63,080 nucleotides of DNA, taken from contig CAZSWA010000008.1 in NCBI GenBank assembly GCA_964610465.1, forward strand, positions 1 through 63,080, read 5' to 3'. The position numbers and the translations under genes were made by a program. This document shows positions 1 through 58,120 of this stretch, piece by piece (within the stretch, counting starts at the first letter, position 1; each line of letters starts with the position of its first letter). The DNA is from an uncultured Gammaproteobacteria bacterium. Its GTDB lineage: Bacteria; Patescibacteriota; Microgenomatia; Levybacterales; UBA12049. The notes beneath the pieces were generated by a model. It worked only from the letters and a program-made list of their open reading frames with translations. It searched no databases and had not been told where the DNA came from.

Positions 1-110
1 CTACTCCTGTTGCCTCTCTCTCTGGCAAAACCTCCTTTGCTTCTCTTGTGGTTGACAATTCAGGGGTTGGTGATCTCTTTACTGCCTCCTCTTCTGGCTT
101 AAACAGATTT
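1..110 (+). repeat. copy 1 (partial) of ~100-nt intragenic direct repeat encoding the SGKTSFAG-VVDNSGVGDLFTAS module
   Basis: DNA and protein similarity to 495..650 and 1410..1585, read directly from the sequence. Confidence 0.8.
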
Positions 111-18824: not shown

Positions 18825-19688
18825 ATGAGAAAATTACTCTTTGTTCTCGTCTATACGCTCATCGTCCTTTTTATCGGCAGAAATTTGAATTTTTTACCAC
18901 AAGTTATTCTATTCCAAAAAACAGAAAGTTCTCCCTCTTCTCTCAAACAGGAAACAAAACAAATTATTGACAAAGCGCAAGGAACTTATGGTGTGTATTT
19001 TGCAGATTTTCAGGATGGAAGTTCCTTTGGCATAAACGAAACACAAACATTTACCGCTGCATCAGTAAATAAGGTTCCTATCATAGCAGCTCTCTATGCG
19101 TTAGCTCACAAAAAACAGATAGACCTTAACCAGGTAATCACGCTCCAGCAGGATGATATCCAGGATTATGGAACCGGTTCGTTGCGCTATGAACAACCAG
19201 GAAATACCTACTCTCTTCGTACTCTTGCGAGACTTGCCCTCCAGGAATCAGACAATACCGCAGTTCATATGATCGGTCAGGAAATAGGTCTTGATAAAGT
19301 ACAAACTATGGTAGATGGTTGGGGACTTATCCAAACCGATATAGATGATAACAAAACTTCTCCTTATGACATGTATTTACTCTTTAGAAAAATTTATAAT
19401 AACGAAATTACTGATAAAGCACATACAGAAGAACTTTTAGGTTTTATGAAAGATACAGAATTTGAAGATAGAATTCCAATCTTAATGCCAAAAGATGTCA
19501 CGGTCTATCATAAAACAGGGGACAGCGTAGGGATTATCCATGATGTAGGAATTATCAAGAAAGGACATACTTGTTTCTTTCTTGCAGTTATGACTTCAGA
19601 TATCGGAGATACTGAAGCTACCACGAAAAAAAATATCGGGCAAATTGCCAAAATGATATATGACGCTTCCTCTTCATCTGATAGGTAA
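18825..19688 (+). CDS. class-A beta-lactamase-like serine hydrolase (exported)
   Basis: The ORF has an N-terminal TM/signal segment. Motifs are S-x-x-K (ASVNKV), SDN (ESDNTA) and KTG (HKTGDS). Confidence 0.8.
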   Translation: MRKLLFVLVYTLIVLFIGRNLNFLPQVILFQKTESSPSSLKQETKQIIDKAQGTYGVYFADFQDGSSFGINETQTFTAASVNKVPIIAALYALAHKKQIDLNQVITLQQDDIQDYGTGSLRYEQPGNTYSLRTLARLALQESDNTAVHMIGQEIGLDKVQTMVDGWGLIQTDIDDNKTSPYDMYLLFRKIYNNEITDKAHTEELLGFMKDTEFEDRIPILMPKDVTVYHKTGDSVGIIHDVGIIKKGHTCFFLAVMTSDIGDTEATTKKNIGQIAKMIYDASSSSDR

Positions 19689-38527: not shown

Positions 38528-39880
38528 ATGAACAAAACAGCGACCGGTATTTGGGACATAGTATTGCAAGAAATTGAAAAAAATGTTTCACAGGGAAATT
38601 TTGTTACGCTTTTTAAAAACACAGCCTTATTATCTCTTGCTGATGATATCGCAACCATTGCAGCGCCATCTCCAATGATTATTGACTTGTTGCAGAGACG
38701 TTTTTCGGGTGAGATAAAAAAACTTTTAGATATGCAAACTGGTCGGGATAATTCATTGGTCTTTATCCCAAAAGGGGTTCCAACTCAGGAGCATAAAGAA
38801 ACAAAAAACGGTCCGCTTTTTAGTGAAGAAACCAAGCCCATACAAAAAGTTTCTGTGGGACATCCACCACGGGTGAGAGCTGATTATACTTTTCAAAATT
38901 TTGCTGTTTCTCCAAGTAATCAATTAGCTTTTGTCTCTGCAAGTACAGTTGCTGCAAGTATTGGACAAGCTTACAATCCTTTTTTTATCTATGGACCTGT
39001 CGGCGTTGGGAAAACCCACCTTATGCATGCAATCGCCAATGAAGCGTATCCCAAAAAGCCTGATAAAAAAATTATTTACATCACTAGTGAGGAATTTACT
39101 AATGAAGTAATAGAAGCAATACGTACCAATGATACGGCAAAGATGAAGAAACGCTTTCGCTCGGCATATCTTTTGCTTATTGATGATATCCAATTTATAG
39201 AAGGAAAGGAGCGAGTACAAGAAGAATTGTTTCATACGTTTAATATTTTAATTGATAATGGCTCACAAATCGTTTTAACATCAGATAGGCCCCCACAGGA
39301 GATTAAGCGGCTTGAAAAAAGGCTTTCCTCACGCTTTGCCGGAGGATTGACGGTTGACATTGAACCGCCGGATTTCGAATTAAAAACTGCGATTCTTCGT
39401 ATCAAAGCGGAAAAGTACGGATTTGATCTTCCAATTGAGATAGCTAAACTTATTGCAGACTCTGCAGTTGATACACGAAGTCTTGAAGGATTGCTATTAA
39501 GAATAATAACGCAGGCAACAACGACAGGGAAAGAACTAACTCCTGATCTCGCCCAGAAAGCATTGGGAGGAGTAATAGAGGAGAAACGGGCAGGTCTTCA
39601 TGCAGAAGATGTCATAGAAACCGTATGTGAGTTTTATAGGGTAAAACCCACGCAACTCAAAGGCCCCAAAAGAGATGCATCTCTTGTTCGTGCACGGCAA
39701 GTAACAATGTATCTTTTAAAACATGAACTTGGGTTAACCTATGCGGAAATTGGAAATTTGTTGGGTGGGAGGGATCATACTACTATTATGTACGGAGTGG
39801 AAAAGATGGAAGCTTTGGTGAATAACAAAGCACAGATATCAGAGGATATTCTGGGGATAAGTAGAACTCTTCATGGGTAA
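38528..39880 (+). CDS. dnaA: chromosomal replication initiator DnaA
   Basis: Walker A is GPVGVGKTHL and Walker B is LLIDDIQF. The domain IV motif RDHTTIMYGVEKM is present. Confidence 0.95.
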   Translation: MNKTATGIWDIVLQEIEKNVSQGNFVTLFKNTALLSLADDIATIAAPSPMIIDLLQRRFSGEIKKLLDMQTGRDNSLVFIPKGVPTQEHKETKNGPLFSEETKPIQKVSVGHPPRVRADYTFQNFAVSPSNQLAFVSASTVAASIGQAYNPFFIYGPVGVGKTHLMHAIANEAYPKKPDKKIIYITSEEFTNEVIEAIRTNDTAKMKKRFRSAYLLLIDDIQFIEGKERVQEELFHTFNILIDNGSQIVLTSDRPPQEIKRLEKRLSSRFAGGLTVDIEPPDFELKTAILRIKAEKYGFDLPIEIAKLIADSAVDTRSLEGLLLRIITQATTTGKELTPDLAQKALGGVIEEKRAGLHAEDVIETVCEFYRVKPTQLKGPKRDASLVRARQVTMYLLKHELGLTYAEIGNLLGGRDHTTIMYGVEKMEALVNNKAQISEDILGISRTLHG

Positions 39881-40137
39881 AAAAAATGGATAACTCCTTC
39901 TTTTAAGTTATAAACAACTTATACCCAAAGATATCAACAGGTTATCCACATTTTTGTGGGCTCATTAGGAAATAGAGCTCGCTTACTATTATGATATAGA
40001 TGCTCCTAGCAGAACCAAAAAATAGGTTATGGCGCAAGCCCAAACAAAAACTGACTGTTTTATTATGAGCTGGAAAACTATTGCTTTTTTCCACATTTCC
40101 ATATACACTACTACAACTACAAATAGATATATATACT
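39881..40137. other. candidate oriC segment (dnaA-dnaN spacer with DnaA boxes and AT-rich tracts)
   Basis: A perfect TTATCCACA lies at 39942..39950 and TTtTCCACA at 40087..40095. A partial reverse box aaTGGATAA lies at 39885..39893. AT-rich runs (tattatgatatagatg; aaatagatatatatacta) are present. Confidence 0.55.
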
Positions 40138-41253
40138 ATGAAAGTAAAAGTATTGACAAATAACTTACAAGAAAGGCTTCCATTTTTAAATCATGCAACT
40201 TCTGCTAAAAATCAACTTCCAGTATTGTTAAATATTCTTTTAGAAACAATGAACGGAAAATTGAAGCTAAGCAGTACTGATTTAGAAATTGGAATAGAAA
40301 CATTTATTCCTGCAACCATTGAAGAAGAAGGTGGCATTACTATTCCTGCAAAAACATTCACAGAACTTATCAATTCATTGGGAGAAGAAGAAATTACTCT
40401 TCAAACGAAAGAAAATCTTATTGAAGTAATTAGCAAAAAAACAAGAAGTGTATTCCAAACAATCTCAAAAGATGAATTTCCCAAACTCTACGAAAAAAAA
40501 GGGGAGATCCTGGCAGTAATAAAAGCCAAAGATTTAAAAGAAGATTTCTTATCAGTAGTATTTGCTGCCAGTAACGATACTTCCCGTCCAGCACTCTCAG
40601 GGGTGCTGGTGCGCAAAGAAAAAGAAGGATTTCTTCTTGTCGCAACTGATGGATATCGCCTTTCTCTTAGGCATTATAAAATAGCTGAAGGGAATAAATC
40701 ACAAATTGATGAAAAAGTCCTAATTGTTCCAGCACGGGTCCTTAGAGAAATGATGGCAACCCGGGATGATGAAGATACTATTGCTATTTATATTTCAGAG
40801 GAGAGTAATCAAATATTGTTTGAGCAGAAGGATACGATTCTTGTAGGTAGACTTATTCAGGCAGAATTTCCTAATTTTGAAAAGATAATTCCATCAGATT
40901 TTTCAGCCAAAGCTTCATTTGAAAGAGAAGAGTTGCAAAAAGCTGTCAAAATCTGCTCCATTTTTGCCCGAGAAACAGCTAATATTGTGAAACTCTCTTT
41001 TAAGAAAGATAAGATTGTAGTTTCCTCGCAAACTCCGTCTCTTGGAGAAAATACCGTTGATGTTGATGCAACATTAAATGGTGAAGAAAATGAAATTGCC
41101 TTTAATGCTAAATATCTTCTGGATTTATTCTCAAATATTGATGAGAGGGATTTGGTATTTGAAATGGTTGGACCATTAAATGCGGGCGTATTTAAAATAA
41201 AAGATGATGACTCTTTTCTTCACCTAATCATGCCTATTCGTACCCAAGCGTAA
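40138..41253 (+). CDS. dnaN: DNA polymerase III beta sliding clamp
   Basis: MKVKVLTNNLQ is the likely start (ORF open from 40081). LSSTDLEIGIE and VATDGYRLSL motifs are present, and the gene lies directly after dnaA. Confidence 0.9.
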   Translation: MKVKVLTNNLQERLPFLNHATSAKNQLPVLLNILLETMNGKLKLSSTDLEIGIETFIPATIEEEGGITIPAKTFTELINSLGEEEITLQTKENLIEVISKKTRSVFQTISKDEFPKLYEKKGEILAVIKAKDLKEDFLSVVFAASNDTSRPALSGVLVRKEKEGFLLVATDGYRLSLRHYKIAEGNKSQIDEKVLIVPARVLREMMATRDDEDTIAIYISEESNQILFEQKDTILVGRLIQAEFPNFEKIIPSDFSAKASFEREELQKAVKICSIFARETANIVKLSFKKDKIVVSSQTPSLGENTVDVDATLNGEENEIAFNAKYLLDLFSNIDERDLVFEMVGPLNAGVFKIKDDDSFLHLIMPIRTQA

Positions 41254-45023: not shown

Positions 45024-47036
45024 TTATGGTTTAGGAGTAGTGGGAGAGAGATTGTTTGCTGCAGAACTGATATGCGAGCCAAATCCAGCAGGAGAACTAC
45101 TTTGGGGAGCGGTAGTAGGCACTTGATGAGAAAACATGGATGGTCCTTGTGGCATTGTCGTAGTTGCTGATTGGATTTGAGAATTGGGTTTGAGAGAGGA
45201 CACTGTCGTTGATGGTGTTGTCGCTTGTTTCATCGCCTGGGCTGCTTGTTGTCTCTTCAAGAGTTCGGCAGGATTTGATGTAATGAGCTCATGCTCAAAT
45301 GGTGCAGCAACCACTTTTACTGCTACATGATTCTGTCCGGCAAAAAATAATCCTTCTCCAACATCTGCTGAAAGAAGTAACGCTTTTTCTCCTTCTGTCA
45401 AATAAAATGTATTTGCTATCATATCGACTTCTGCAGTACCTTGTTTTAACAGTATTTGAAGAGAAGAGTTAGTAAGGACTGCTTTGCCGTAATCTGTTTT
45501 TAAAAAATCTTCTACATCCTGTGTGGCAGTAGTTAATCCCAGGAAATATTTTCTCGCGCGTTTGGCAATAGAGTAGACGAAAGAGGCAGAATCCTCAAAC
45601 TTCATCATGTACCATGCCTCATCGAGGATTAAGAGACGTTTATGAAGGTTTCTTTTTACCTTTGTCCAAACGAAATCCAAAATAATATGCATAGCAATAG
45701 GACGAAGCTCTTCTTCCAGATTTTTAATATTAAAAACTGTTAAGGGATTGGTAATATCAAAATTAGATTGTTGATTGAAAATTCCAGCTGCACTTCCCTT
45801 AATAAATTTTTCAAGACGAAGCGCCATGTCTTTGGCTACATTATTTTCCATACCAAGAAGCGTTTTATATAAATCTTCCATAAGAGGAGGTTGTCTTTTC
45901 TGGGTAGCAGGGTCAGGGGTAATGCCTTTTTGCCGGTATGTTTCAATAAGTGCTCTATCCAGGATTGCATCATGTTCAGAGTCAAGTTCTCCCATGATGA
46001 GTTTTAAAAGCCCATGTAGTGATAATATTTTAAGTCCTAATTCATTTTCTCCTTCCTCATAGAGTTCTGAAAGGTCAAAAGGGTTCAGTTTGATAGGAGA
46101 GGAGGAAGAAAACTCTACGTCTTCTCCTCCTAATGTTTTGGCCAGTGTGTCATATTCTCCTTCAGGGTCAATGACAATAACTTCTATGCCAAGGGTAAAC
46201 TGGCGCATAATCTCAAGTTTTATATAATAAGATTTTCCTGCGCCTGATTTTCCAAAGACGACTTCGTTAGCGTTTTCAAGTGAAAATCTGTCAAAGACAA
46301 TAAGTGAGCCATTCTGTTGATTTACGCCATACATAACGCCTCTGTTTTGAGTCAAAATAGCAGAGGTGAAAGGAAATGTTGAAGCGAGTGATGTAGTATC
46401 CATATTTCTCGTGATAAAAAGTTTATCCTGTCCCATGGGGAGACTTGTTTTGAATCCTTCTTCCATTTGGAGCGTCGCTGGTTTTCCGGCAAGGAGAAGC
46501 GATCCAAGTGTCGTTTGTAACTGCTTTATTGTTTGCTGTAATTCAGGTACTGTTTCAGCTGAAACAGTAATATAAAACCCAAACTGAAAAAACCGTTCGA
46601 TGCCTTTTGCCAATTCTTCCTGCAGCGCTTTTGCATCCTCCAAAGCAGCTGTTACGGTTGGGTCTACCGGCTTGCCATGTTCTTGATCAGACGCGATGGT
46701 TGCTTCCATTTCCCCAATTTTTCTTTTTAAGTCAGCAAGTACATCAGTGGATGAAGTCGGATAACAAAACATACTAATATCCATTGTGTGGTCATAATCG
46801 ATAATGGGTTGGAGCCAACCAGGTGATACATAACGAGGATATCCTGCCATAAAAAGCGTACTATAGAAGATATCACCGACACGAATATAGCGATAGTCAA
46901 CCTCAACAGAAGATGGAGCGATAATATCAATAATTGATACCAATCCTTTCTCCAGATTTTCAAGAGCTGCGCCTGGTTTTTTTTGAGCTCCTTGCCCTGC
47001 TTTTGTTACTTGTTTTGGTTTTGGCAATAATCCCAT
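45024..47036 (-). CDS. VirB4/TrbE/TraC-family type IV secretion ATPase
   Basis: Walker A is FGKSGAGKSYYIK and Walker B is LLILDEAWYMM. The N-terminal YRYIRVGDIFYSTLFMAGYPRYVSPGWL is typical of Gram-positive-type VirB4. MGLLPKPKQ at 47036 is the likely start (ORF open to 47075). Confidence 0.85.
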   Translation of the reverse strand: MGLLPKPKQVTKAGQGAQKKPGAALENLEKGLVSIIDIIAPSSVEVDYRYIRVGDIFYSTLFMAGYPRYVSPGWLQPIIDYDHTMDISMFCYPTSSTDVLADLKRKIGEMEATIASDQEHGKPVDPTVTAALEDAKALQEELAKGIERFFQFGFYITVSAETVPELQQTIKQLQTTLGSLLLAGKPATLQMEEGFKTSLPMGQDKLFITRNMDTTSLASTFPFTSAILTQNRGVMYGVNQQNGSLIVFDRFSLENANEVVFGKSGAGKSYYIKLEIMRQFTLGIEVIVIDPEGEYDTLAKTLGGEDVEFSSSSPIKLNPFDLSELYEEGENELGLKILSLHGLLKLIMGELDSEHDAILDRALIETYRQKGITPDPATQKRQPPLMEDLYKTLLGMENNVAKDMALRLEKFIKGSAAGIFNQQSNFDITNPLTVFNIKNLEEELRPIAMHIILDFVWTKVKRNLHKRLLILDEAWYMMKFEDSASFVYSIAKRARKYFLGLTTATQDVEDFLKTDYGKAVLTNSSLQILLKQGTAEVDMIANTFYLTEGEKALLLSADVGEGLFFAGQNHVAVKVVAAPFEHELITSNPAELLKRQQAAQAMKQATTPSTTVSSLKPNSQIQSATTTMPQGPSMFSHQVPTTAPQSSSPAGFGSHISSAANNLSPTTPKP

Positions 47037-47037
47037 A

Positions 47038-47700
47038 TTATACTTTGGCTTGTGTGACAATTGGTGTCTCAACACCTTCTTGTGTTTGCGCTACATCAAG
47101 TGTTACTCCTTCGTTATATTCATCATAAAATAATTTTATGAGATCTTCTTTCTCTAACACACGGGCAGTACTGGAAATTTTTTGAAGCTGAGGAAGGAGA
47201 GCATTTGCTTTCGATTCAAGATTTTTCATTGCTGATACAGCAAAGATGTCTGTTTTTGCTTGTCCTGTTTGTATAGATTGAGAAACTCCAGTTACACCGC
47301 CTTCAAGGGCAGAAAAGGAAATAACTATATAAAAAGATTTATTCAGCACGACATTTACAATTACCATTTCCTGTACAAATGTGCGGTACAGTTTGATATG
47401 GCGTGCCAGTTGGGGATTCTTGGTAGTTGCTGCTGCTTCATCCAGTTCTTTTAGATATGAAGATATATCCATACGTTTATTCCTGATAAGAATTTGAATT
47501 GGGAAGGAAAGTGAGTTAAGGAGCGCAGCATAGGAATAAATTTTTGAATCCTGCTCACGTCTTGAAAGTAAGGCAAAATTACTTGCAGTTACTTCAATGA
47601 CCATTGCCGCATAGCCTCCTTCAAAGAGAACAATATTGTCGCCAAAGTCTACGATCTCTGTAAATTTTTGTGTAGATGCATGAATTTTCTGGACAGCCAT
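47038..47700 (-). CDS. T4SS-associated soluble protein (hypothetical; abuts virB4 start)
   Basis: The 220-aa ORF has no TM helix, and its stop lies 1 nt before the proposed virB4 ATG. It is assigned by context only. Confidence 0.55.
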   Translation of the reverse strand: MAVQKIHASTQKFTEIVDFGDNIVLFEGGYAAMVIEVTASNFALLSRREQDSKIYSYAALLNSLSFPIQILIRNKRMDISSYLKELDEAAATTKNPQLARHIKLYRTFVQEMVIVNVVLNKSFYIVISFSALEGGVTGVSQSIQTGQAKTDIFAVSAMKNLESKANALLPQLQKISSTARVLEKEDLIKLFYDEYNEGVTLDVAQTQEGVETPIVTQAKV

Positions 47701-47704
47701 AGAC

Positions 47705-49030
47705 TTAATTAAATAATGCCTTTCTTAGGTCCTCACGTTCATCGTGAGAAATAATTTCTATTGGTAACATGATTTCTCCTTTGGTAGTTATTTGAATTCT
47801 ATCGAATGTGTGCTGTTTCTTGGGATCTTCAAGCTCTATGGTATAGGTTGCATTTAAGAGTGGAGTTGCTGAGGCAAATTGTCCAAGCGCATTCGTTTTA
47901 AATGCCCGAACAGGATTTTCATCTTTGTCTTTAATCTCAACCAAAATATTTGATAGCACATTGCCTCTTGAATCTTTAACAATTCCTATGACAATGTTTG
48001 GCGTATCAGATACATGTGGCAGCCCGGCACTTTTTGCCATGTTCTGAGGAATTATCCGTGTGTGTTGTATGTCTGGTTGCGGAGCAGGTGGTAATGCTGG
48101 AACAGGAGTTTCAGAGGGGTTGATACTTTGTGGTTTTTGTGCAAGATCAAGCTGGCGTTTAAGAGACATAAGCTCTTGCTCAAGTTGAGTTTTTTGTGCA
48201 TGAACTTCGTTAAGTTGATTTTCTAACTCCTGTACTTTTTTATGCGCTGCTGCTTGATTCTGAGGAGATGATGGGCTTAATTCTTCTTTTTTTGCTTCTT
48301 CAAGTTCCTTTTCAAGTGATTGGCTTTGTTGTTCAAGATTTTGATTCTTTACATCAAGAGGTTGTGGTGGCAGTGGAGCCGATTTCCGCCATTGTGTTTG
48401 GAGCTCCTGATGAATGGCTTCCTTGTTTTTCTCAATTGCAATGTCATCCTGTGTTTTAGGAAGAGAGGCATTGGGGATAGGTTGAATTGTCATAAGCGGT
48501 TGGGGAGAGGAAGACGCAGGAGTTATTGGCATAGCAGAAAACGTTTGAAGGAAAGACGCTTCTTTCTCATCAATCTTACTTCGTACTCCTGAATGTGTAG
48601 TACGAAGGAGCGTTTCAAGCTGACGTGATTTTTCTACTTTTCTAGAAATGTGATGTATTTGTCCTTGTGCGGGTACTGGCACTAATACAACTGTCGTAAT
48701 TGAAAGCTTGCGGCCTAATTTATGATATACAAATTGATTAGGTTCAAATATAGCGTGGACGAAATTCATAAACATTACATCTATTGGCCTTCCATCAATG
48801 GGGACAAAGGCAACGATAACTCCTCCAATAATAGCAATAGGTACAAATCCGAATCTATCAAATAGAAGCCATGGCATTTTAAATGGTAAATACCACGCAA
48901 TAACAGCGAGAATGCAAGCTGCTGCTACATATGCAAACTGCTTAATTGTCATGCTGCCAATCAATTTGAATTGAAAACCGGTAACATCTTGTGGGATTGG
49001 ATGATTATCCATAACTTTAAGAGAGGTCAC
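47705..49030 (-). CDS. PrgI/VirB3-like membrane protein fused to coiled coil and C-terminal beta-sandwich (CarboxypepD_reg-like) domain
   Basis: The N-terminus is PIPQDVTGFQFKLIGSMTIKQFAYVAAACILAVIAWYL plus a second TM helix, the PrgI-family pattern. A Q/E/L-rich coiled coil covers aa ~200-300. The C-terminal IVIGIVKDSRGNVLSNILVEIKD...TYTIEL is a carboxypeptidase-regulatory-like fold motif. Confidence 0.65.
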   Translation of the reverse strand: MTSLKVMDNHPIPQDVTGFQFKLIGSMTIKQFAYVAAACILAVIAWYLPFKMPWLLFDRFGFVPIAIIGGVIVAFVPIDGRPIDVMFMNFVHAIFEPNQFVYHKLGRKLSITTVVLVPVPAQGQIHHISRKVEKSRQLETLLRTTHSGVRSKIDEKEASFLQTFSAMPITPASSSPQPLMTIQPIPNASLPKTQDDIAIEKNKEAIHQELQTQWRKSAPLPPQPLDVKNQNLEQQSQSLEKELEEAKKEELSPSSPQNQAAAHKKVQELENQLNEVHAQKTQLEQELMSLKRQLDLAQKPQSINPSETPVPALPPAPQPDIQHTRIIPQNMAKSAGLPHVSDTPNIVIGIVKDSRGNVLSNILVEIKDKDENPVRAFKTNALGQFASATPLLNATYTIELEDPKKQHTFDRIQITTKGEIMLPIEIISHDEREDLRKALFN

Positions 49031-49187: not shown

Positions 49188-49523
49188 TTACTGACACAAA
49201 AGATTGAAATTGGTGATATCAAGACAGCTTGGATTTCCTGCAAGAAAGCGAATAAAGATGACGATTCCGAACGAGAGAAGGACAAGAATTGCACCGAGGA
49301 TAGCAAAAGTCAATGTTTGGCGAGCACTTTGAACCTGTTTTGGGTCACCACCGGAAAACATAAATTTGATGCCCGCATAAATAATAAAAAGCAATGTAAC
49401 AGCTCCTAAGAAGTAGAGAGCTGCAGTAATAAGATTCGAGAATACTACAGGAATACATTTGAGCGTAGGGACACCGCTACTATCTAAACAACCTGAACTT
49501 ATCCAGTCTTTTCCAATTTGCAT
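49188..49523 (-). CDS. VirB2/TrbC-like pilin paralog 1
   Basis: The 111-aa ORF has two TM helices flanking the loop FSGGDPKQVQSARQTL. One Cys pair lies before TM1 and one after TM2. Confidence 0.7.
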   Translation of the reverse strand: MQIGKDWISSGCLDSSGVPTLKCIPVVFSNLITAALYFLGAVTLLFIIYAGIKFMFSGGDPKQVQSARQTLTFAILGAILVLLSFGIVIFIRFLAGNPSCLDITNFNLLCQ

Positions 49524-49579: not shown

Positions 49580-49981
49580 CTAGCAGCCAAGTAAGCATCC
49601 TGGGGTAAGATTTGATAAACTAATATGGAACAATCCAAGTACCAATTGCAGTATGAAGTAGGCCAAGAAAGCTATTACTAAACCAATAATTGCAGAAACA
49701 ATTGTTTTTTGAGCAGCTTCTACCTTTGCTTTGTCTCCACCTGAGAGAATCCAACGAATACCTCCCCAGATAAGGAAGAAAAGAGCAATAAGTACTGCTG
49801 CTATTAAGAGAATAGTAATAACTCTCCCAATTATTACGCCTAATTGGCTTGGATCTGCGCTACAAATGACATTGAATTGTCCGGGAGGACATGCGCTCCC
49901 TATATTTACTTGAGCAAATGCTGGTGCTGCAATTGCGAATGCTGCTGCGATTCCGAGTGCTGTTGCAAATATCTTTTTCAT
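49580..49981 (-). CDS. VirB2/TrbC-like pilin paralog 2 (with signal peptide)
   Basis: The signal peptide is MKKIFATALGIAAAFAIAAPAFA. The two-TM hairpin has the loop LSGGDKAKVEAAQKTI. Cys pairs lie before TM1 and at the C-terminus (GCLLGC). Confidence 0.75.
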   Translation of the reverse strand: MKKIFATALGIAAAFAIAAPAFAQVNIGSACPPGQFNVICSADPSQLGVIIGRVITILLIAAVLIALFFLIWGGIRWILSGGDKAKVEAAQKTIVSAIIGLVIAFLAYFILQLVLGLFHISLSNLTPGCLLGC

Positions 49982-50104: not shown

Positions 50105-50422
50105 TTAGAGTTGTTGAAGATTGACACCAAAAATAGTTCCTAAGGCACTTAGCAAGAAGAAGGAGAGAAGAGTAAGTACAAGTCCGATTATTGCCCAGGT
50201 AAGTCGATTTCTTGCTGCTTGCACTTTTGTTTTATCTCCAGCTGAAGTTATCCATTGTATCCCTCCCCAAACAAGAAAGAAAAGGCAAAGTATGACTGCG
50301 ATAATAAGTACAATGTTTAGACTATTGCGAAGTATTTTAATAAAAGTATTGAGTCCGCCCGTTGCAACACCAGTTGGTGGATTAATTGTCTGTCCGTTTA
50401 CGGACAACGAAAGATACCTCAT
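50105..50422 (-). CDS. VirB2/TrbC-like pilin paralog 3 (Cys-free)
   Basis: The 105-aa ORF has a two-TM hairpin with the loop TSAGDKTKVQAARNRL. It shares the GGTTATAGAT-ATG start context with paralog 2. Confidence 0.7.
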   Translation of the reverse strand: MRYLSLSVNGQTINPPTGVATGGLNTFIKILRNSLNIVLIIAVILCLFFLVWGGIQWITSAGDKTKVQAARNRLTWAIIGLVLTLLSFFLLSALGTIFGVNLQQL

Positions 50423-50476: not shown

Positions 50477-51511
50477 TTAGCATGGTTTGCCCGCTACAGG
50501 TTTACAAGGACTTGTCGCATTGTCTCCCCAGCCTGGGATTTGGAGTACATCCACTCCTACTGTTTCAAGTATCACAAGAGAGAAGATAAGGAATAAAAGT
50601 CCTACGATTGCAGAAGTTAGTCTTTCGCGTGCCCTATTTACCTGCTCTGGTTTGCCTTGTGAAGTAAGAAGTTCATATCCTGAGTAAATAATGATAAGAA
50701 GGGCGATACCGCCAGAAAGAGCAAGCAAAGTACCAAAGAGCCGTGTGATAAAACCTGATGCATCAACTGGCCATGCTCCAAGAGCTGTATTGACCTGCAA
50801 ACAAGTTCCATCCGCACCAAACTGTGCGCAAGGAGGAGCTGGGGGAGAAGGGAATGGATTAAACGTAGGTTGTGTAGGCCCAACAACTGGCGTAGGAACA
50901 ACACAGGTTCCTGTTGCCGCCTGTATACCACCAGCAAGGTCGCAGGTGAGACCTTTGTCCGTGCAACACGGTGGAAGAATGTCCCCACATTTGTCGCCGG
51001 CATTACCGCAGTTATTTGGTATTGACTTGCAGGTTCCCTGAGTTGAGAAACCGCCGGGTACATCACAGTAAAATCCACTACAACAATCGCTATTTATGGA
51101 GCAGGTTCCACCACTTCCTCCGCATGTTTTTCCAACTTGTTGTGTTACGCATTTGCCTGGTGTTTGGCCGTTAATTCCGCTTGAATATCCTTTACATGTA
51201 AGTGGAGGATTCTGTGCGATACAACAATCTTTCATGGTAGAGGTATTGAAGCCAGTACCAATATAACAGTTATCTCCTGGTCCTGCGCAATTCACACCTG
51301 GCTGTGGAATAGCACACGAACCATCTGCATTTGGGTTAAGTGGACTTAGTACGCAAACTAGTGGTTGTGACGGATTGCTACAGCAGGGCTGCAGAGAATT
51401 ACACGTTCCTCCAACATTACTTATACATTGAGCCGCATCTGCTCCGGGAGAAGTTGCAGAAGATAATAAGAGCAGACAACAAAATACTAGTAAAAGCAAT
51501 GTTTTTTTCAC
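50477..51511 (-). CDS. VirB2/TrbC-like pilin paralog 4 with N-terminal four-fold knottin-like cystine-module extension
   Basis: The likely GTG start at 51511 gives the signal peptide (M)KKTLLLLVFCCLLLLSSATSPGADA (ORF open to 51547). Four C-x6-7-C-x5-13-CC-x4-8-C-x11-14-C modules follow, then a P-rich linker and the pilin hairpin (LLIIIYSGYELLTSQGKPEQVNRARERLTSAIVGLLFLIF). Confidence 0.75.
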   Translation of the reverse strand: MKKTLLLLVFCCLLLLSSATSPGADAAQCISNVGGTCNSLQPCCSNPSQPLVCVLSPLNPNADGSCAIPQPGVNCAGPGDNCYIGTGFNTSTMKDCCIAQNPPLTCKGYSSGINGQTPGKCVTQQVGKTCGGSGGTCSINSDCCSGFYCDVPGGFSTQGTCKSIPNNCGNAGDKCGDILPPCCTDKGLTCDLAGGIQAATGTCVVPTPVVGPTQPTFNPFPSPPAPPCAQFGADGTCLQVNTALGAWPVDASGFITRLFGTLLALSGGIALLIIIYSGYELLTSQGKPEQVNRARERLTSAIVGLLFLIFSLVILETVGVDVLQIPGWGDNATSPCKPVAGKPC

Positions 51512-51588
51512 TCTTTTAGCATAACACCAAAAAAGAAAAAAGTGCAAGATGGTTGAAGAAGAACTTACAACACGCTAAAATAAATACT

Positions 51589-52920
51589 ATGGAAGAAAAA
51601 CACTTAGAGTCTTTATATCCTGCAAACGCCCGATTTGATGAGATTCAGAAAATCCTTAATTATATCAAAGAAGGGAATTCCTGTCAGCTTGTTGGTTTGC
51701 CTGGTGTTGGTAGGTCAAATCTTTTGGATTTCTTAGCATATAACCGTAGTATCCGATATGCTCATTTGGGAGAGAAACAAGCTGCAAGTATTCATTTCGT
51801 TCCTGTTGATTTCTCAGAAGTAAGGGGCAAGCAACTTTTTGATGTGATGAAATTTTTGTTTTTATCTCTGGTCGAATCCCTCAGGGACAGAAAAAAGGAA
51901 GAAGAATATACAACAGTTGATAAGATATTTCGGGATTATCTGGGATTTCATGACGAACTGGTATTCTTTCAAGGCTTAAAGCAAGCAATTGATTACCTCG
52001 CTCTTGAGAAGGGATTTACTATTGTCTTCCTTTTTGACCGCTTTGAAGAGTATATCCCCAATGCAACAACTGAGTTTTTTACCAATCTTCGGATTCTGAG
52101 ACGTCATGCCAAGTATCATTTCTCAGTCGTTTTCTCTCTCAACAGACCGCTTGAGGAAATGCTTGAACCATCTCTTTTTGCAGATTTTTATGAATTTGTA
52201 GCAGGACATATTGTATATATGTCTCTTTTTGATAAACCAGGAGTGGATTTCAGGCTTTCTTACTTGCAAAAATTGACCGGCAGGAAGATTCCTGATAAAA
52301 TAATTGAGGAGATAATTCATCTTACAGGAGGACATAGCAAGCTTATCAGACTTTCAGCAGAAGCCTATCTTGCCCATTTCAAAGAAGGAGAAGAGATGAG
52401 TGAGTTTCTTCTTTCTCAAAAACCAGTAAGAAGCGGGCTTATGGAAATTTGGCGTTCTCTTACTCCAGCCGAACAAACAGCGATTCTCAAAAAAGATTTT
52501 GCAGATACCAATATTCGTAGCTATTTTGAAAATGTGGGAGTATTAAAAGATACTACTATCACTATTCCACTTTTTGCGGAATTTATACAGAATCAATTTG
52601 TCCCTGAACAAATAGAAAAGGCAAAAATAGAGTTTGATGAACATACGAATACTATCAAAAAAGGCGAGGTAGTGCTGTCTGACACGCTTACCTCAGCCGA
52701 ATTTCGCCTGCTTAAGCATCTTTTACACAATCAGGATAGGATACTGGAGCGGCAAGAAATAATCCAAATTGTCTGGCAGGATCTCAAGTCTCAAGCTGGA
52801 ATTACTGATCAGGCAGTTGATCAGCTTATTTTTCGATTGAGACGCAAAATAGAAGACAATCCCAACAATCCAGAACATCTGCAAACTGTCAAAGGCCGAG
52901 GATTCAAATTTACCGCGTAA
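51589..52920 (+). CDS. P-loop ATPase (AAA/STAND-like) with C-terminal OmpR/PhoB-type winged-helix domain
   Basis: The Walker-A-like motif is GLPGVGRSNL and the Walker-B-like motif is IVFLFDRFEE. The C-terminus is RQEIIQIVWQDLKSQAGITDQAVDQLIFRLRRKIEDNPNNPEHLQTVKGRGFKF. It is divergent from the pilin genes, and the ATG at 51589 is preferred over the TTG at 51553. Confidence 0.75.
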   Translation: MEEKHLESLYPANARFDEIQKILNYIKEGNSCQLVGLPGVGRSNLLDFLAYNRSIRYAHLGEKQAASIHFVPVDFSEVRGKQLFDVMKFLFLSLVESLRDRKKEEEYTTVDKIFRDYLGFHDELVFFQGLKQAIDYLALEKGFTIVFLFDRFEEYIPNATTEFFTNLRILRRHAKYHFSVVFSLNRPLEEMLEPSLFADFYEFVAGHIVYMSLFDKPGVDFRLSYLQKLTGRKIPDKIIEEIIHLTGGHSKLIRLSAEAYLAHFKEGEEMSEFLLSQKPVRSGLMEIWRSLTPAEQTAILKKDFADTNIRSYFENVGVLKDTTITIPLFAEFIQNQFVPEQIEKAKIEFDEHTNTIKKGEVVLSDTLTSAEFRLLKHLLHNQDRILERQEIIQIVWQDLKSQAGITDQAVDQLIFRLRRKIEDNPNNPEHLQTVKGRGFKFTA

Positions 52921-52996: not shown

Positions 52997-55900
52997 ATGA
53001 AAGAGAGAGGACAGAGTCCCAGTGAAGAACCAAATAAAAAGCCGGTTCAAGGCCGAAGTGGTGAAGAAAGATTGACAACTCGTCCTCCAGCGCCGTATGC
53101 TAAAGAGAGAGATATTTTTATGGCAGAAAACGGAGAAGGCCAAAAACCGCAGGGACAAGATCCCAATTCAACACCTAACCAGTCAAGGCGTCCAGAAACA
53201 GGAGGTGAAAGTGGCGGTGGAGAGCCTCCACGTCCTCCAAGAGATACTGCAGGAGCACAAGGCGCCCCAGAAGATGATCAAGGGTCACAGAAACAGAATG
53301 AAGGTCAATCGCAGTCTCAAGAACAACAAAGACAGGATAGGACACAAAGACAATCCAAGCAGCGAGAAAATGAACAGCAAATGAATCCTGATTTATTAAA
53401 AACAACCTTGCAAGATCTAATAGCGCTGCATAAAAGAGATGGTGATAGCCCTAAGGAAGATGAAATTAAAAGATATGAAGCATTTTATCGTCGATTACCT
53501 GTAAATATATTAGGGGAAACCGCAAAAGAAATTGGTGATTTGCTTCACGAATTAAGAAACGTTGGGAAGCCTAACAAAGAAGAAGCATCTTTGAAAGAAA
53601 AAAATGATTTAATTCAATCTATAAAAGATTTACTTCAAAACCCAAACGTTCCTATGCAACTTTACGCAAGGTTTTACAGCCGATTTACAAAGCTCATTGA
53701 AGAAAGTCCTTCATTATTAAACTCGCTTACACAGAAGGATAAAGAGACTTATCAACAGCTTGAAGCTAAGATAAAAAAAGAGCCGGTAGAACACGAAAAG
53801 TCTGATAAGGCTACTATCGATGAGAAAATTAAGAGTATTAAAGAAGGGAGCCTTTCTAAAGATACGGCGAATAACTTTGCTAGTCTCAGATGGTATTTAA
53901 ATATGATAAACGATAGTATAAAAAAGGGAAGTCTTATCTTAACTAAGGAAAATAAAGAGATAATAGAAGAAGCGTTAAGTATACAAGCTTATGACGCAGG
54001 AGGAAGGCCAATCACAGATACTGATGTTTTGAAAAGAATGCAGAATGTAGCTGAAAGATTGGAAGACGAAGTACAGCTCTCCAATTATTTTGATAAAGAA
54101 AATGTGAAAGATGAAACTGAAGGTGAAGAATTAGGATTACCTTCAAATCTTGATAGATTGATACTTCGAGTTATGGATAGTGCACCAGAGGAATATAGAA
54201 GAGGACGGGAAAAAGCCTTAATGGACGAAGAAAATAATATCAATTACCATAATTTTCTTGACTGGATGCGTTATAGAGCATGGGATGAAATTAACACAAA
54301 TCCTAATTCGCGCGTAAATATACTTGGATTATCGGTTCCTGCTCGAGGCTACTATAATATATCGATTGAAGATATGGCAAGACAAGCACGATATATAAGA
54401 AGAGAGAAATATGAGTTTTCTGGTGATGAGACACAGGGAAAAGAACATGTGACCGGAAGGAAATATTACTATACGGACAAATTTTATGAAAAATTTAGAA
54501 CAAAATCACTATTATATGAAGCATGGCTTATAACACAAAGTCACGAGAGAAGCCTTATAAAGCTTACTAGAGCCAACGATAAGGGAGTAGTTGAACAACT
54601 GGCTGGAACATTCAGAATGAATATTATGACTGATAATGGAGAGGATGAAAGTGCCCGTTTTATTCTCATGGCAAAACTCCCCAAACGTGATAAAGAACAG
54701 CTAAGGAGATATGTAGAAGAGGAAGAGGCAGGAGATGTAGGATATATTTTTAATATCCTGACACGGGCATATTATCATCTTGCAGAGCTTGGGGATAATG
54801 ATGAAAGGACACTTAAGGACAACGAATTCTATAACACTCTTGGAGCTACTAGAGTTGATAATTTGTGGAAATTTATGATTAGAAAATCACTCAATAGAGG
54901 AACTCAAGCGCGCGAACAATATAAAGGATACATAAATGGGAGAGTACAAGAACTTCTTACTCAACATAGGTCAAGGTTAAACGATGCAGAAATAAATGAA
55001 GTTGAGAGAGAGATAGCTAGTCTTGGTACTAAAAACGCATCGGAATTGCCAGAGGAAATTGATGAAAGTCCTGAATATCAACGAATAAAAGCTATAATTT
55101 ATCCTAAAATTAATAAGCAAGTTACTGAACGTGACTCGTATCAAGAGCATGAAAAACTTGGTTTGTCACTTCTTAAAACCGCATATGGGTTTGAGAGAAA
55201 AAAATTGAATTATTTCAATGATTCAAATGCTGCTCCAGAGCTTAAGATTTTAGTCGACGATGCATTAGTTGAAACTGTATGTAAAGATGCTGGACTTGAA
55301 GGAAACGAACAGGCATATATTACTCAATGGGTAAGGGATAATTTATATTGGACATTGACAGTCGCAAGAAATGATACCGGAGGGGTAGGATACTTTGCAA
55401 AATACATGAATACAGGATTTTATCGAAAAAGACAAACTGGAGGGAATGAAATAGGCAATCCATACAATATTGATGGATGGAAACATGGGTTATCCTATCT
55501 TGATGCACTACGGTTTACTAAGGTGGGTGGAAATGAAGAAGCAAAGACACTGATCCAAATATTAGGAGAGATGGCTAAGAAAAAAACAACCACAGATAAA
55601 TATGTAGGTCCAGGGCAACAAGAAGCAAACTATTCAGATTTAATGTTACTAAATCAAGTAGAACTATTTGAATGGCTTAGAAAGACAAGAAGAATACAAT
55701 GGGAAGGTTTAAAGAGAACTCAATTTGGAGAAGTAGAAAGTCATGAGTTGGAAGAAAAACTATTGGGGCCTAATCCAAGCTTACGACATTTTATTCAATA
55801 CGGCTTTGATATGATTCAGCCTCAATATGATGCGAGTATACGAACATGGGACTGGGAATACGAAACTGATACTAAAGGGAATTTAATATTGGATGAGCAA

Positions 55901-56377
55901 GGAAGACCAAAATCACCAAAGAAAGTATTCAAAACAGTTACCATAAGAGAGCATATGTTTGATGAGGAAGTACTTAAGATGGGAATGTACGATAGGTTTA
56001 AAACAAATCCATTAGATAAAGAAAAAGCAGTGCTAAGAAACTATTTCTTTTATATTATAGAAAAGGATTTACAAGCACGAAGAACTGCAGGTTCAGGATA
56101 TCCTGGTATTTCTCTTGAACTTATACATATGATAGGAGAATTCTTTCAAAGGCGAGAGATTACTCCTGAAGAGGTAGAAACAGAAGAAGGCAAAAAAAAT
56201 CCAAAGAGGCAAGGTATGCTTGATGAGTATGAATGGAACAAAATCGTTCATATGGCCCATGCAACTGATAAAGAAATGTTACGGGAAGAAGGTTGGGCGG
56301 AAGTCCTTAGTGTGTTAACTATTTTTCTTGGGAGGATGTGGGGAAGTATAGTAAGAAGCTCGGTTCCTAAACCATAA
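52997..56377 (+). CDS. 1126-aa orphan protein with ~130-aa disordered P/Q/G/E-rich N-terminus
   Basis: This is a long uninterrupted ORF that is highly charged (E/K/R-rich). It has no P-loop, HExxH or other motif I recognise, and one possible C-terminal hydrophobic helix (VLSVLTIFLGRMWGSIV). Confidence 0.7.
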   Translation: MKERGQSPSEEPNKKPVQGRSGEERLTTRPPAPYAKERDIFMAENGEGQKPQGQDPNSTPNQSRRPETGGESGGGEPPRPPRDTAGAQGAPEDDQGSQKQNEGQSQSQEQQRQDRTQRQSKQRENEQQMNPDLLKTTLQDLIALHKRDGDSPKEDEIKRYEAFYRRLPVNILGETAKEIGDLLHELRNVGKPNKEEASLKEKNDLIQSIKDLLQNPNVPMQLYARFYSRFTKLIEESPSLLNSLTQKDKETYQQLEAKIKKEPVEHEKSDKATIDEKIKSIKEGSLSKDTANNFASLRWYLNMINDSIKKGSLILTKENKEIIEEALSIQAYDAGGRPITDTDVLKRMQNVAERLEDEVQLSNYFDKENVKDETEGEELGLPSNLDRLILRVMDSAPEEYRRGREKALMDEENNINYHNFLDWMRYRAWDEINTNPNSRVNILGLSVPARGYYNISIEDMARQARYIRREKYEFSGDETQGKEHVTGRKYYYTDKFYEKFRTKSLLYEAWLITQSHERSLIKLTRANDKGVVEQLAGTFRMNIMTDNGEDESARFILMAKLPKRDKEQLRRYVEEEEAGDVGYIFNILTRAYYHLAELGDNDERTLKDNEFYNTLGATRVDNLWKFMIRKSLNRGTQAREQYKGYINGRVQELLTQHRSRLNDAEINEVEREIASLGTKNASELPEEIDESPEYQRIKAIIYPKINKQVTERDSYQEHEKLGLSLLKTAYGFERKKLNYFNDSNAAPELKILVDDALVETVCKDAGLEGNEQAYITQWVRDNLYWTLTVARNDTGGVGYFAKYMNTGFYRKRQTGGNEIGNPYNIDGWKHGLSYLDALRFTKVGGNEEAKTLIQILGEMAKKKTTTDKYVGPGQQEANYSDLMLLNQVELFEWLRKTRRIQWEGLKRTQFGEVESHELEEKLLGPNPSLRHFIQYGFDMIQPQYDASIRTWDWEYETDTKGNLILDEQGRPKSPKKVFKTVTIREHMFDEEVLKMGMYDRFKTNPLDKEKAVLRNYFFYIIEKDLQARRTAGSGYPGISLELIHMIGEFFQRREITPEEVETEEGKKNPKRQGMLDEYEWNKIVHMAHATDKEMLREEGWAEVLSVLTIFLGRMWGSIVRSSVPKP

Positions 56378-56392
56378 AGTCTTTTATTGCTC

Positions 56393-58120
56393 TCAAGTTT
56401 TTTCAGGTTCAGGTTGTCCAAATCTTTCTTTTTGCCCTAATAATCCTTTGACAGCAAGTTCTCTTCGTTGTTGCCATTTGGCAGGAAGTTTGGGGCCACG
56501 TCTTCCTGCGAGAATGTCATATGTATATCCTCTTAAAATACCTGCCTGATGATAATAACTTGCTGGGCGAGTCATTCTTTTCCATGCAAGACCAGAAGCG
56601 CCGGCAACAGGTGCTGCTCCACCCGCAATTCCAGCGCCAATTGCAGCAGATACAGCTTGAGAGGTTTTTGCTCCAATGGAGTTTCTTATAATATCCAAAA
56701 GACTTGGTGTGACAAGTAAAACTCCTAATACTGCCAAAGCCTGAAAATGAGAGATATTGGGGTTTGCGGTAAGTGGAGGGATGAACCATTTATTATCTCC
56801 TGTAGGTTGTACAGTAGTCTCTAGGATACGTGCGAAAACCAAAAGAAGCGCAGTTGCAGGAAAGACTGCAAGATTGGCAAACATACGTCGTATCCATCCT
56901 TGGAATCCTCCTAAAGGTTTGCCTGGTAGAAGTCCAAGAAGAATATAAAGAGGAGAGGCCACAGTATAGACAAGGACCATAGCATACGCTTTGAGAAGGG
57001 CAAACCAGATACGAAAGAGCAATACAATAAGAATAATAAAGATAATAAGTGCTGATACTACTGCCACTAATCTACTTACAATAAATCCGAAAAAATCTGC
57101 TACACAAGCTCCTGGGTCAACGCTAGGAGGGAAACCGCCTATACATTGGGCATTCGGATTTGAATTAAAAAAATTACTGATAATACCACCAATAATAGAA
57201 CCTAATGAGCCAGCAACGTCTCCGGATACACTAAATACGCCTCCTCCTGTAAGGAAATTACAACCTTCTGAAAATACGTCATTAAAAAATCCTAAAGGAT
57301 GAGTAAGTAGATCTTGCGTTGCAAGTTGAGAAAGTGGAGTAGTACCACAACCGCCTCCACCTGCATGAGGGATAGGCACATTCATACCTTGGCCTTGTGT
57401 CATAATGTTAATACCCGCATAGGTTGCTATCCACATCGCATCCACCATAGCCCCTGCGATTGCATAAGAAAAAGTAATAAGAAGAATTCCGATAATAACG
57501 CGTGGAATTTGATTTTGTACGGTCATTACAGTACGAGGGTCAATTTTAATTCTCAGCATTACTGCAAGGCCGATTATGATGAAAACAACAACAAGCGCAA
57601 GATACGCAACATCTCGTATTGACACCCACATGTTAAGAAGGGGACGTAAAGCATCAAATCCGCTATTTTGCGCATATACATGTTTTACGAGGCCAAAATT
57701 ACTTGACATGTAACGGACATAATCTAATCCACTTGCAGGAGGGGTATAAAGAGCAGTAATAAGATTAGTAGATAGCCCAAGAACTCCTCCAATTTGAGTA
57801 GAATTGTTTGGAGCTAGTCCAAGCTTATGAGACTGAGGATTAATTCCCAGACAGGACTGAGTTGGATTTATAGGGTCAACGCCTACTAATTCACAAACTA
57901 CCGCAGAGGTTACTTCGATAAGTACTGACTGAGCGTAAGTATGTAAATTATGAGGGACATTTGAATCAGTATTAGGCACAACATAAGAATTTAAGTCGGT
58001 AGTTGTTTGGGCGTAAGTAATACTTACAAATGGAACTGTGAAAAAAAAGAAGACAAGCAATATACAAAGAGCACAAAAAAGAATTTTTTGTACGCAAAAT
58101 AACCGGGCAGGGAAGCGCAT
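56393..58120 (-). CDS. polytopic membrane protein, VirB6/TrbL-like candidate
   Basis: The 575-aa ORF has an N-terminal signal/TM, a ~140-aa extracytoplasmic segment and then at least 6 TM helices. Its context is a VirB4/VirB2 locus. The family assignment rests on architecture and context, not on a diagnostic motif. Confidence 0.55.
   Translation of the reverse strand: MRFPARLFCVQKILFCALCILLVFFFFTVPFVSITYAQTTTDLNSYVVPNTDSNVPHNLHTYAQSVLIEVTSAVVCELVGVDPINPTQSCLGINPQSHKLGLAPNNSTQIGGVLGLSTNLITALYTPPASGLDYVRYMSSNFGLVKHVYAQNSGFDALRPLLNMWVSIRDVAYLALVVVFIIIGLAVMLRIKIDPRTVMTVQNQIPRVIIGILLITFSYAIAGAMVDAMWIATYAGINIMTQGQGMNVPIPHAGGGGCGTTPLSQLATQDLLTHPLGFFNDVFSEGCNFLTGGGVFSVSGDVAGSLGSIIGGIISNFFNSNPNAQCIGGFPPSVDPGACVADFFGFIVSRLVAVVSALIIFIILIVLLFRIWFALLKAYAMVLVYTVASPLYILLGLLPGKPLGGFQGWIRRMFANLAVFPATALLLVFARILETTVQPTGDNKWFIPPLTANPNISHFQALAVLGVLLVTPSLLDIIRNSIGAKTSQAVSAAIGAGIAGGAAPVAGASGLAWKRMTRPASYYHQAGILRGYTYDILAGRRGPKLPAKWQQRRELAVKGLLGQKERFGQPEPEKT

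Follow-up and report, generated by a model that had tools for sequence, protein, structure and literature searches.

The window analysed here, a 63,080-nucleotide (nt) stretch of contig CAZSWA010000008.1 (assembly GCA_964610465.1), carries on its reverse strand a gene for a long type IV secretion system (T4SS) pilin whose N-terminal part holds four knottin-like modules. The gene occupies 50477..51511 and encodes 344 amino acids (aa) from a GTG start (VKKTLLLL...), with its stop codon at 50477-50479. The open reading frame (ORF) would span 50477..51547 if read from an alternative upstream TTG at 51547; the 344-aa form is the version called by gene callers in public assemblies. From N- to C-terminus, the product comprises a signal peptide of Sec type, four modules of six Cys each, a linker rich in Pro, a Cys pair, the PF18895 hairpin and, at the C-terminal end, another Cys pair, as follows:

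50477..51511, reverse strand: long T4SS pilin gene, 344 aa
51434..51511, reverse strand: Sec-type signal peptide, aa 1-26, with a KK n-region and an L-rich h-region, sequence KKTLLLLVFCCLLLLSSATSPGADA
51314..51427, reverse strand: knottin-like module 1, aa 29-66, C-x7-C-x5-CC-x8-C-x12-C, loops 7/5/0/8/12
51149..51289, reverse strand: knottin-like module 2, aa 75-121, C-x6-C-x13-CC-x8-C-x14-C, loops 6/13/0/8/14
51029..51124, reverse strand: knottin-like module 3, aa 130-161, C-x6-C-x5-CC-x4-C-x11-C, loops 6/5/0/4/11
50903..51010, reverse strand: knottin-like module 4, aa 168-203, C-x6-C-x6-CC-x6-C-x12-C, loops 6/6/0/6/12
50831..50902, reverse strand: Pro-rich linker, aa 204-227, ending in P-x-PP-x-PP just ahead of C228, a motif conserved in the family alignment
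50762..50830, reverse strand: Cys-pair beta-hairpin of the pilin core, aa 228-250 (C228, C237, 'TALG')
50549..50761, reverse strand: pilin helical hairpin, aa 251-321 (helix 1, aa 251-283; helix 2, aa 288-321)
50480..50548, reverse strand: predicted extracytoplasmic C-terminal tail, aa 322-344, with the Cys pair C336/C344 in CKPVAGKPC

Architecture of the long pilin

The initial annotation, made from the sequence, had placed four cysteine modules at nt 50903-51427 on linkers of 6-8 aa. A regular expression run on the translation returns exactly those four, and the linkers measure 8, 8 and 6 aa (AIPQPGVN, VTQQVGKT and KSIPNN). The signal peptide, P-rich spacer, extra Cys pair, two hydrophobic helices and CKPVAGKPC end that it described are each present in the translation. 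The modules follow the general formula C-x6/7-C-x5-13-CC-x4-8-C-x11-14-C, and all four fit the six-Cys C-C-CC-C-C framework with loop lengths compatible with the inhibitor cystine knot (ICK). Module 3 has the canonical ICK spacing, and module 2, with its long loops, is the most divergent of the four. The loops are rich in Gly, Ser, Thr and Asn, and Arg, His, Glu and Trp are all absent from them; thus, judged by composition, they do not look like an ion-channel toxin pharmacophore.

A chance origin of the four modules is excluded, because 200,000 composition-preserving shuffles of aa 27-205 (179 aa) yielded four modules in no case and three in 13, and a six-frame scan of the whole window found the module pattern once elsewhere, in a non-coding frame. 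There is likewise almost no chance that the gene is an artefact, either two genes joined by misassembly or a frameshift (a fusion that the initial annotation had named as a ground for refutation) or a non-coding ORF. We found no evidence that supports this explanation, and it is effectively refuted by an identical 344-aa protein on six public contigs (Logan SRR12266077 among them), by dozens of relatives that share the architecture and domain order, by the signal peptide at the N-terminus and by a frame that is continuous through the conserved linker motif.

The N-terminus has a hydrophobic window at aa 1-24 and an AlphaFold2 (AF2) helix at aa 2-18, and the signal peptide is likely cleaved between A-D-A and AQ. 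A lipoprotein reading of this region was ruled out on sequence. We also rejected a type IV pilin (T4P, PilA-like), for which the criterion is a class III prepilin leader plus a single N-terminal hydrophobic helix: the leader (G followed by F/M-T-L-x-E) is absent, a Sec-type signal peptide stands in its place, and the hydrophobic hairpin is C-terminal. The GC (guanine plus cytosine) content of the gene is 46-50% vs 38% for the window. A foreign origin was rejected as the reason, since a composition rich in Gly, Cys, Pro and Ala explains the raised GC. Promoter and terminator scans around the gene gave results equal to shuffle expectation.

The C-terminal part is a pilin core. PF18895 (T4SS_pilin) matches aa 254-316 (E 1.9e-7, 31.5 bits vs a gathering cut-off of 26.6), and the gene lies within a T4SS cluster, both of which sustain the VirB2/TrbC-like hairpin with two transmembrane helices proposed earlier. 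The TrbC/VirB2 family PF04956 gave no significant match (E 0.35, 11.6 bits vs a cut-off of 27.9). Because Foldseek searches with the full-length model returned generic helical hairpins only (CnrX, Nup58, HR1 and others), all of them non-significant, family membership is taken from the hidden Markov model (HMM). With a 143-row alignment, AF2 models aa ~220-325 of the full-length protein at a predicted local distance difference test (pLDDT) score of 88-95, and the hairpin helices at 90-95. The strands 237-242 and 245-248 of the preceding beta-hairpin score about 88-95, and among 26 relatives C228 is invariant and C237 at least 90% conserved. The hydrophobic segments of the helical hairpin span aa ~254-282 and ~296-326, and its two helices are joined by a K/R-rich loop, 'SQGKPEQVNRARERL' (~aa 284-287 and beyond; short basic loop QGKPEQVNRARER). 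Given this basic loop and the positive-inside rule, we infer that the loop is cytoplasmic and that both termini lie outside. The N-terminus of VirB2-type pilins is exposed outside the membrane.

Resemblance of the modules to knottins

The C-C-CC-C-C spacing is the ICK framework of spider and cone-snail toxins and of plant and fungal knottins. In PDB and Pfam, the counterparts of the modules as a family are almost exclusively solved knottins, in agreement with the framework named in the initial annotation. Strict six-Cys modules of the same framework, one to four per protein, are present in 21 of the 120 best pilin homologues. These 37 modules have six invariant Cys and the consensus CxxxGxxC...CCxxxLxC...GxC. 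Their HMM found 39 matches among all PDB chain sequences, 38 of which are ICK knottins. The best are DkTx (E 3.6e-4) and asteropsins A/B (1.2e-3), and the others include hainantoxin-IV, delta-palutoxins, tachystatins, conotoxins and PAFP-S.

Taken singly, module 3 is identical at 16 of 24 positions (67%; E 0.015) to acatoxin-1 (PDB 6NK9), whose structure, determined by nuclear magnetic resonance, is an ICK fold (PMC9866706). Acatoxin-1 comes from the sea anemone Anthopleura cascaia, and the consensus of the module family is also like the sponge-derived asteropsins. A phmmer search with module 4 gave a weak PDB match to jingzhaotoxin-3 (E 0.69); its matches to TAL-effector repeats were discarded as spurious, having no passing stretch. 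When the modules were scanned singly against Pfam, Toxin_12 was found for seven of them, and Toxin_7, Toxin_35, Tachystatin_B and Conotoxin were also found. The best Pfam knottin match is that of module 3 to Toxin_12 (E 0.0027, 18.7 bits, under the 21-bit cut-off). Single matches outside the ICK families were to Hydrophobin_2, Dickkopf_N and DPY.

AlphaFold, run on module 3 with the 37-module alignment, gives a model of pLDDT 82.4. In a Foldseek search against PDB, 15/15 matches of this model are knottins, at template modelling (TM) scores of 0.41-0.70 and with E-values of at least 1 for a 32-aa query. The best is asteropsin F (TM 0.70, root-mean-square deviation 1.8 A over 33 columns), and tachystatin B, DkTx and evasin-3 are among the others. 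Module 3 is also the sole module of moderate confidence in the full-length AF2 model (pLDDT 69-74). The modelling suggests that it adopts a knottin-like fold.

We also scored the modules against a profile built solely from modules of other pilins, with 500 Cys-fixed shuffles as the control. Module 1 scores 19.2 bits (equalled by 1/500 shuffles), module 2 scores 6.8 bits (37/500), module 3 scores 13.1 bits and module 4 scores 24.6 bits (0/500). Because Cys-fixed shuffles seldom or never reach their scores, modules 1 and 4 resemble foreign modules beyond the spacing of the cysteines. An exhaustive phmmer search with the N-terminal 214 aa against 1.84 billion representatives returned the protein itself and one spurious match, a Cys-free MucBP-type repeat protein (P0121) that we rejected as a homologue of the head. 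At the level of sequence comparison, no orthologue of the complete four-module array is detectable. Word-indexed profile searches of a large protein index with single-module and tandem-module alignments gave no matches and are uninformative on the module outside pilins; in ~0.8 Mb of related loci, the module is found solely in pilins. The resemblance to animal knottins may reflect convergence or a shared origin.

The pilin array and its T4SS cluster

The long pilin is the first of four tandem pilin genes, which are followed by T4SS genes and preceded by a divergent regulator:

51553..52920, forward strand: AAA+/winged-helix (OmpR-type Trans_reg_C) regulator, PF00486 E 6e-19, divergent and upstream of the pilin gene
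50105..50422, reverse strand: short pilin, array position 2, 105 aa, PF18895 E 5.4e-12
49580..49981, reverse strand: short pilin, array position 3, 133 aa, PF18895 E 6.4e-10, with an N-terminal and a C-terminal Cys pair
49188..49523, reverse strand: short pilin, array position 4, 111 aa, 4 Cys, PF18895 E 8.9e-7
47705..49030, reverse strand: PrgI/VirB3-like membrane protein, PF12666 E 4e-7, with a long coiled-coil/Q-rich region and a CarboxypepD_reg-like domain
45024..47700, reverse strand: VirB4-like T4SS ATPase in two overlapping ORFs, 47038-47700 (N-terminal part) and 45024-47075 (683 aa)

The long pilin is not an isolated case, a point on which the initial annotation needs amending: it occupies position 1 of a conserved long-short-short-short array whose first member has a hypervariable, mostly Cys-rich head in many related genomes, most of them of Levybacteria type. 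A core HMM search covered 79 related species-representative loci plus the window and identified 252 pilin ORFs in them. Four pilins in the order long-short-short-short form the commonest array (34 of ~51 loci with at least 3 pilins). The size and Cys count at each position are strikingly constant across loci: ~105-125 aa and 0 Cys at position 2, ~130-160 aa and 2 Cys at position 3, and ~100-115 aa and 4 Cys at position 4. Because order, sizes and Cys counts are conserved and the array in the window fits them, the four pilins look, from their sequences, like distinct conserved subunits and not like interchangeable paralogues.

The relatives come overwhelmingly from metagenome-assembled genomes (MAGs) assigned to Levybacteria/Levyibacteriota, Microgenomates or the 'Patescibacteria group'. 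A genome of this kind would be compatible with the 38% GC of the window. Many GTDB records with these Levybacteria-type arrays (L002-L004, L008, L009 and others) are titled 'uncultured Gammaproteobacteria bacterium' (binchicken/SRP co-assembly MAGs), and other such records bear the titles Limnocylindrales, Sulfotelmatobacter, Lysobacterales and Actinomycetota; these titles look like placeholders or mislabels.

Among the relatives, the position-1 core is 50-65% identical and has the signature PPxPPC-x6-9-C-x4-TALG, and the heads in front of it, 200-650 aa long, are hypervariable and unalignable. ICK-like modules occur in the heads at 7 of the 79 loci, and the four in the window are the highest number seen. 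One relative has three ICK-like modules at its N-terminus and peptidoglycan-binding domains after the hairpin. The knottin-like head is thus one of the forms that a modular, rapidly changing display position takes within a conserved machine.

Other head types were seen as well. Many long-pilin heads are filled by a second Cys-rich repeat of unrelated type, 'C-x-C-x9-15-NG[FWY]-x-C ... C-x5-6-C ... C', often present in three copies (loci L011, L012, L015, L022, L026, L027 and L055; proteins P0025, P0039 and P0042), and a third type has six Cys without a CC pair (L019, L025, L026). FN3 domains are present in some heads, and P0096 has PG_binding_1 domains C-terminal to the hairpin (P0096 / L006 5644-7008; P0088; P0101); such domains either replace Cys modules or stand alongside them. 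Since P0096 carries these domains past the hairpin, extracellular modules can be attached to the pilin core at either end.

Among 141 related long pilins, 136 have an even Cys count in the N-terminal ectodomain, which points indirectly but strongly to disulfide pairing. Short pilins at positions 2, 3 and 4 typically have 0, 2 and 4 Cys, and the C-terminal tails of relatives after the hairpin have 0, 2, 4, 6 or 8. A metal-binding, metallothionein-like reading was rejected, since there is an export signal and the cysteines are biased towards even numbers and recur with a fixed six-Cys period. Two of the short pilins share with the long pilin a Cys pair ahead of helix 1 and a further pair at the very C-terminal end. 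It is pure speculation that disulfides could staple or rigidify these termini, both predicted to lie on the outer side, as an analogue of the head-to-tail cyclisation of TrbC, VirB2 and TrhA.

Downstream of the array, the VirB4-like ATPase matches a CD1110-family NCBIfam model (390 bits vs a cut-off of 325) and has a TraG P-loop; its N-terminal ORF matches VirB4_plasma positions 128-233. The two ORFs (220 and 683 aa) overlap by 38 nt. Gene calls on the independent Logan contig L001 show the identical split, so it is probably genuine and not a sequencing frameshift. The ATPase gene is followed by a DUF11/isopeptide-type surface protein, several unannotated genes, and then dnaN and dnaA (38528-41253, forward strand), which directly abut the end of the cluster and place the T4SS at the replication origin. 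Published T4SS of Patescibacteria are of the monoderm type (MPF-FATA-like), with VirB2-like pilin arrays of 2-11 genes, and are often adjacent to the origin (Quinonero-Coronel et al. 2025, PMC12102498). The cluster in the window matches this layout.

From its position only, the regulator at 51553-52920 is a candidate to control the pilin operon. It has a paralogue of similar size (~450 aa) at 27815-29164 (reverse strand); both have an AAA+/STAND-like N-terminus and an OmpR-type winged-helix C-terminus, without a receiver domain. Several large ORFs have no Pfam match: 48-4880 (forward, 1610 aa), 52997-56377 (forward, 1126 aa), 5206-6819 (reverse, 537 aa) and 56393-58120 (reverse, 575 aa). The 1126-aa protein, which lies beside the regulator, has a highly charged, low-complexity start. 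A class A beta-lactamase-family ORF is located at 18825-19688 (forward; Beta-lactamase2, E 2.7e-52), apparently within a small Patescibacteria genome.

Proposed role and comparison with known systems

We propose that the gene encodes the long position-1 pilin of a Patescibacteria T4SS, most likely Levybacteria-like (class Microgenomatia), which displays a knottin-like array for adhesion or host recognition; we put the probability of this reading at roughly 0.55. The Sec signal peptide would export the N-terminus, and the two hydrophobic helices would insert as a hairpin with the K/R-rich loop in the cytoplasm and both termini outside. The ectodomain of ~200 aa would then fold oxidatively into four separate disulfide-knotted beads on linkers of 6-8 aa, kept away from the pilin core by the Pro-rich stalk. 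The T4SS, with its VirB4-like ATPase and PrgI/VirB3-like protein, would pull the core out of the membrane and, along with the three short pilins, incorporate it in a VirB2-type filament or attach it at the tip or base of that filament. The outcome would be a protease-resistant, multivalent binding array outside the cell that binds the host surface for epibiotic life, and the hypervariability of the heads would reflect host specificity. Topology, disulfide connectivity (in a knottin, I-IV, II-V and III-VI, with III-VI threading the ring), incorporation into a filament and adhesive function are all putative. The array most likely serves as a surface-displayed adhesin or host-specificity module; a binding role is favoured because relatives are decorated with FN3 and peptidoglycan-binding domains and because the modules are similar to the chitin-binding tachystatins.

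Several points weigh against this proposal. A thiol-oxidoreductase, which the initial annotation had suggested seeking elsewhere in the genome, did not turn up in the 63-kb window, which holds no gene resembling DsbA, VKOR or thioredoxin. Its suggestion to search with the module alone bore out in part: 38 of the 39 PDB profile matches are knottins, and no module reaches the gathering cut-off of any curated Pfam knottin family, all such matches being sub-threshold. Modules 1 and 2, searched singly against PDB with phmmer, gave no match. Structure prediction was similarly divided, in that module 3 gives a knottin-like model whose structural matches are all knottins, and modules 1, 2 and 4 stay at pLDDT < 50 in the full-length AF2 model. 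Even for module 3 the Foldseek E-values are at least 1, and AlphaFold may merely recognise the Cys framework. We know of no pilus shown for this lineage. The tight packing of a filament may leave no room for a 200-aa head on each subunit; given this bulk, the long pilin could sit at the tip, be a minor subunit or fail to polymerise at all.

These last points bear on a non-shaft role, in which the long pilin is a membrane-anchored surface protein or a minor pilin, its hairpin doing no more than anchor it or place it as a lone subunit at the tip or base, and the short pilins make the filament; by analogy, it would work like VirB5 or the tip adhesins of type IV pili. We consider such a role possible, at rather low odds. 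It is a variant of the proposed explanation and does not contradict it. The conserved order of one long and three short pilins, the bulky head, the conserved extra element of the long-pilin core (PPxPPC...C...TALG) and the identity of only 31-43% between this core and the short pilins speak for it, and the high conservation of the core and its match to the same PF18895 model as the short pilins speak against it. Rather unlikely is the idea that the modules are disulfide-rich without a true ICK, having another pairing or a hevein-, granulin- or EGF-like mini-fold with a converged Cys spacing. Module 3 alone is modelled with confidence, all database matches are sub-threshold or marginal, lone matches lead to Hydrophobin_2, Dickkopf_N and DPY, and relatives use other six-Cys frameworks that lack the CC pair. 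Such a fold would have to accommodate the knottin identity of nearly all PDB profile matches and of every structural match (38/39 and 15/15), a solved ICK peptide that is 67% identical across loops 1-3, and loop lengths within the knottin range.

It is unlikely that the protein is a precursor whose knottin array is cut from the core, or at the linkers, and released as soluble antimicrobials, toxins or signals, with the hairpin needed only for export or retention. Secreted toxins and antimicrobial peptides (tachystatins, DkTx, acatoxin-1) are indeed the closest solved relatives, and VirB2, TraA and TrbC pilins are proteolytically processed. However, no dibasic or other recognisable processing site is present in the three inter-module linkers or ahead of the core, the stretch upstream of helix 1 is a conserved and confidently modelled beta-hairpin and no leader, and the loops have no Arg, His, Glu or Trp. 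In addition, the equivalent positions in relatives hold FN3 or peptidoglycan-binding domains, which are binding and not toxin modules.

A bolder extension of the display reading, which we consider rather unlikely, is that these are real ICK domains in bacteria, carried at the head of the first pilin in Patescibacteria T4SS arrays and swapped quickly like cassettes, that the tetravalent array recognises the host cell surface and so sets the host range of an ultrasmall epibiont, and that the likeness to animal venom and sponge knottins reflects shared ancestry or horizontal transfer and not convergence. To our knowledge, the knottin scaffold is described almost only in eukaryotes. A bacterial four-in-tandem knottin fused to a filament subunit, if true, would bear on the evolution of the fold and would provide a natural display scaffold. 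The head would also bear on how epibionts of the Patescibacteria, or candidate phyla radiation (CPR), locate their hosts and stay attached to them. Their T4SS and pilin array, for which neither a substrate nor an adhesin is known, are essential for epibiotic growth in Southlakia epibionticum, the single system examined (PMC12102498; PMC12857230; Wang et al. 2023, PMC10633639). A conserved array with a hypervariable, disulfide-stabilised and multivalent head on its first pilin is a concrete candidate for host recognition. PF18895 proteins are structurally diverse in freshwater metagenomes (bioRxiv 10.1101/2025.04.23.650224), which variation of the long-pilin heads may help to explain.

The closest known systems are the VirB2-like arrays of Patescibacteria (PF18895; PMC12102498, PMC10633639). 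As there, the window has tandem divergent pilins of the same Pfam family (its cores are 31-47% identical), which adjoin PrgI/VirB3- and VirB4-like genes of the monoderm MPF-FATA type and are chromosomal, beside dnaA/dnaN. Unlike the published pilins, which are treated as small VirB2-like proteins, the long pilin has a head of ~200 aa with 24 Cys and four modules, and a conserved Cys-pair hairpin before helix 1. The same Patescibacteria T4SS papers make no mention of Cys-rich or knottin-like pilin heads, and a full-text literature search for knottin or ICK with Patescibacteria or pilin found nothing relevant; the initial annotation knew of no described pilin of this architecture, and none is described in the literature searched. 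With the VirB2/TraA/TrbC pilins (PF04956) it shares a signal peptide, a two-helix hydrophobic hairpin, a basic loop and both termini expected on the outer face. Those pilins are without an ectodomain, and some are cyclised head to tail, whereas this one has terminal Cys pairs instead.

The modules themselves are comparable to ICK peptides (acatoxin-1 6NK9, DkTx, asteropsins, tachystatins, hainantoxins) in their C-C-CC-C-C framework, loops and profile or model similarity, and DkTx also has tandem knots on short linkers. In contrast to these peptides, the modules are bacterial, stand four in a row, are fused to a membrane pilin and score below every Pfam knottin gathering score; channel toxins have basic and aromatic patches, which the Gly/Ser/Thr/Asn-rich loops of the pilin modules lack. 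Tandem small disulfide-rich domains on short linkers, implying multivalency, are also a feature of secreted cysteine-rich repeat proteins (SCREPs; ScrepYard, PMC9885460); according to that resource, the domains of most prokaryotic SCREPs are unrecognised. SCREPs are soluble secreted peptides, whereas the array described here forms the ectodomain of a pilin. VirB5, the tip adhesins of type IV pili and PrgB (a Gram-positive conjugation adhesin) offer a functional analogy only, as dedicated binding parts of a secretion or pilus apparatus. Here one gene per array would provide a variable binding surface; there is no relationship in sequence or fold, and the adhesive part would be fused to a genuine pilin core. 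The protein belongs to PF18895 and to the known pilin arrays of Patescibacteria, and its knottin-like four-module head is undescribed in the literature searched.

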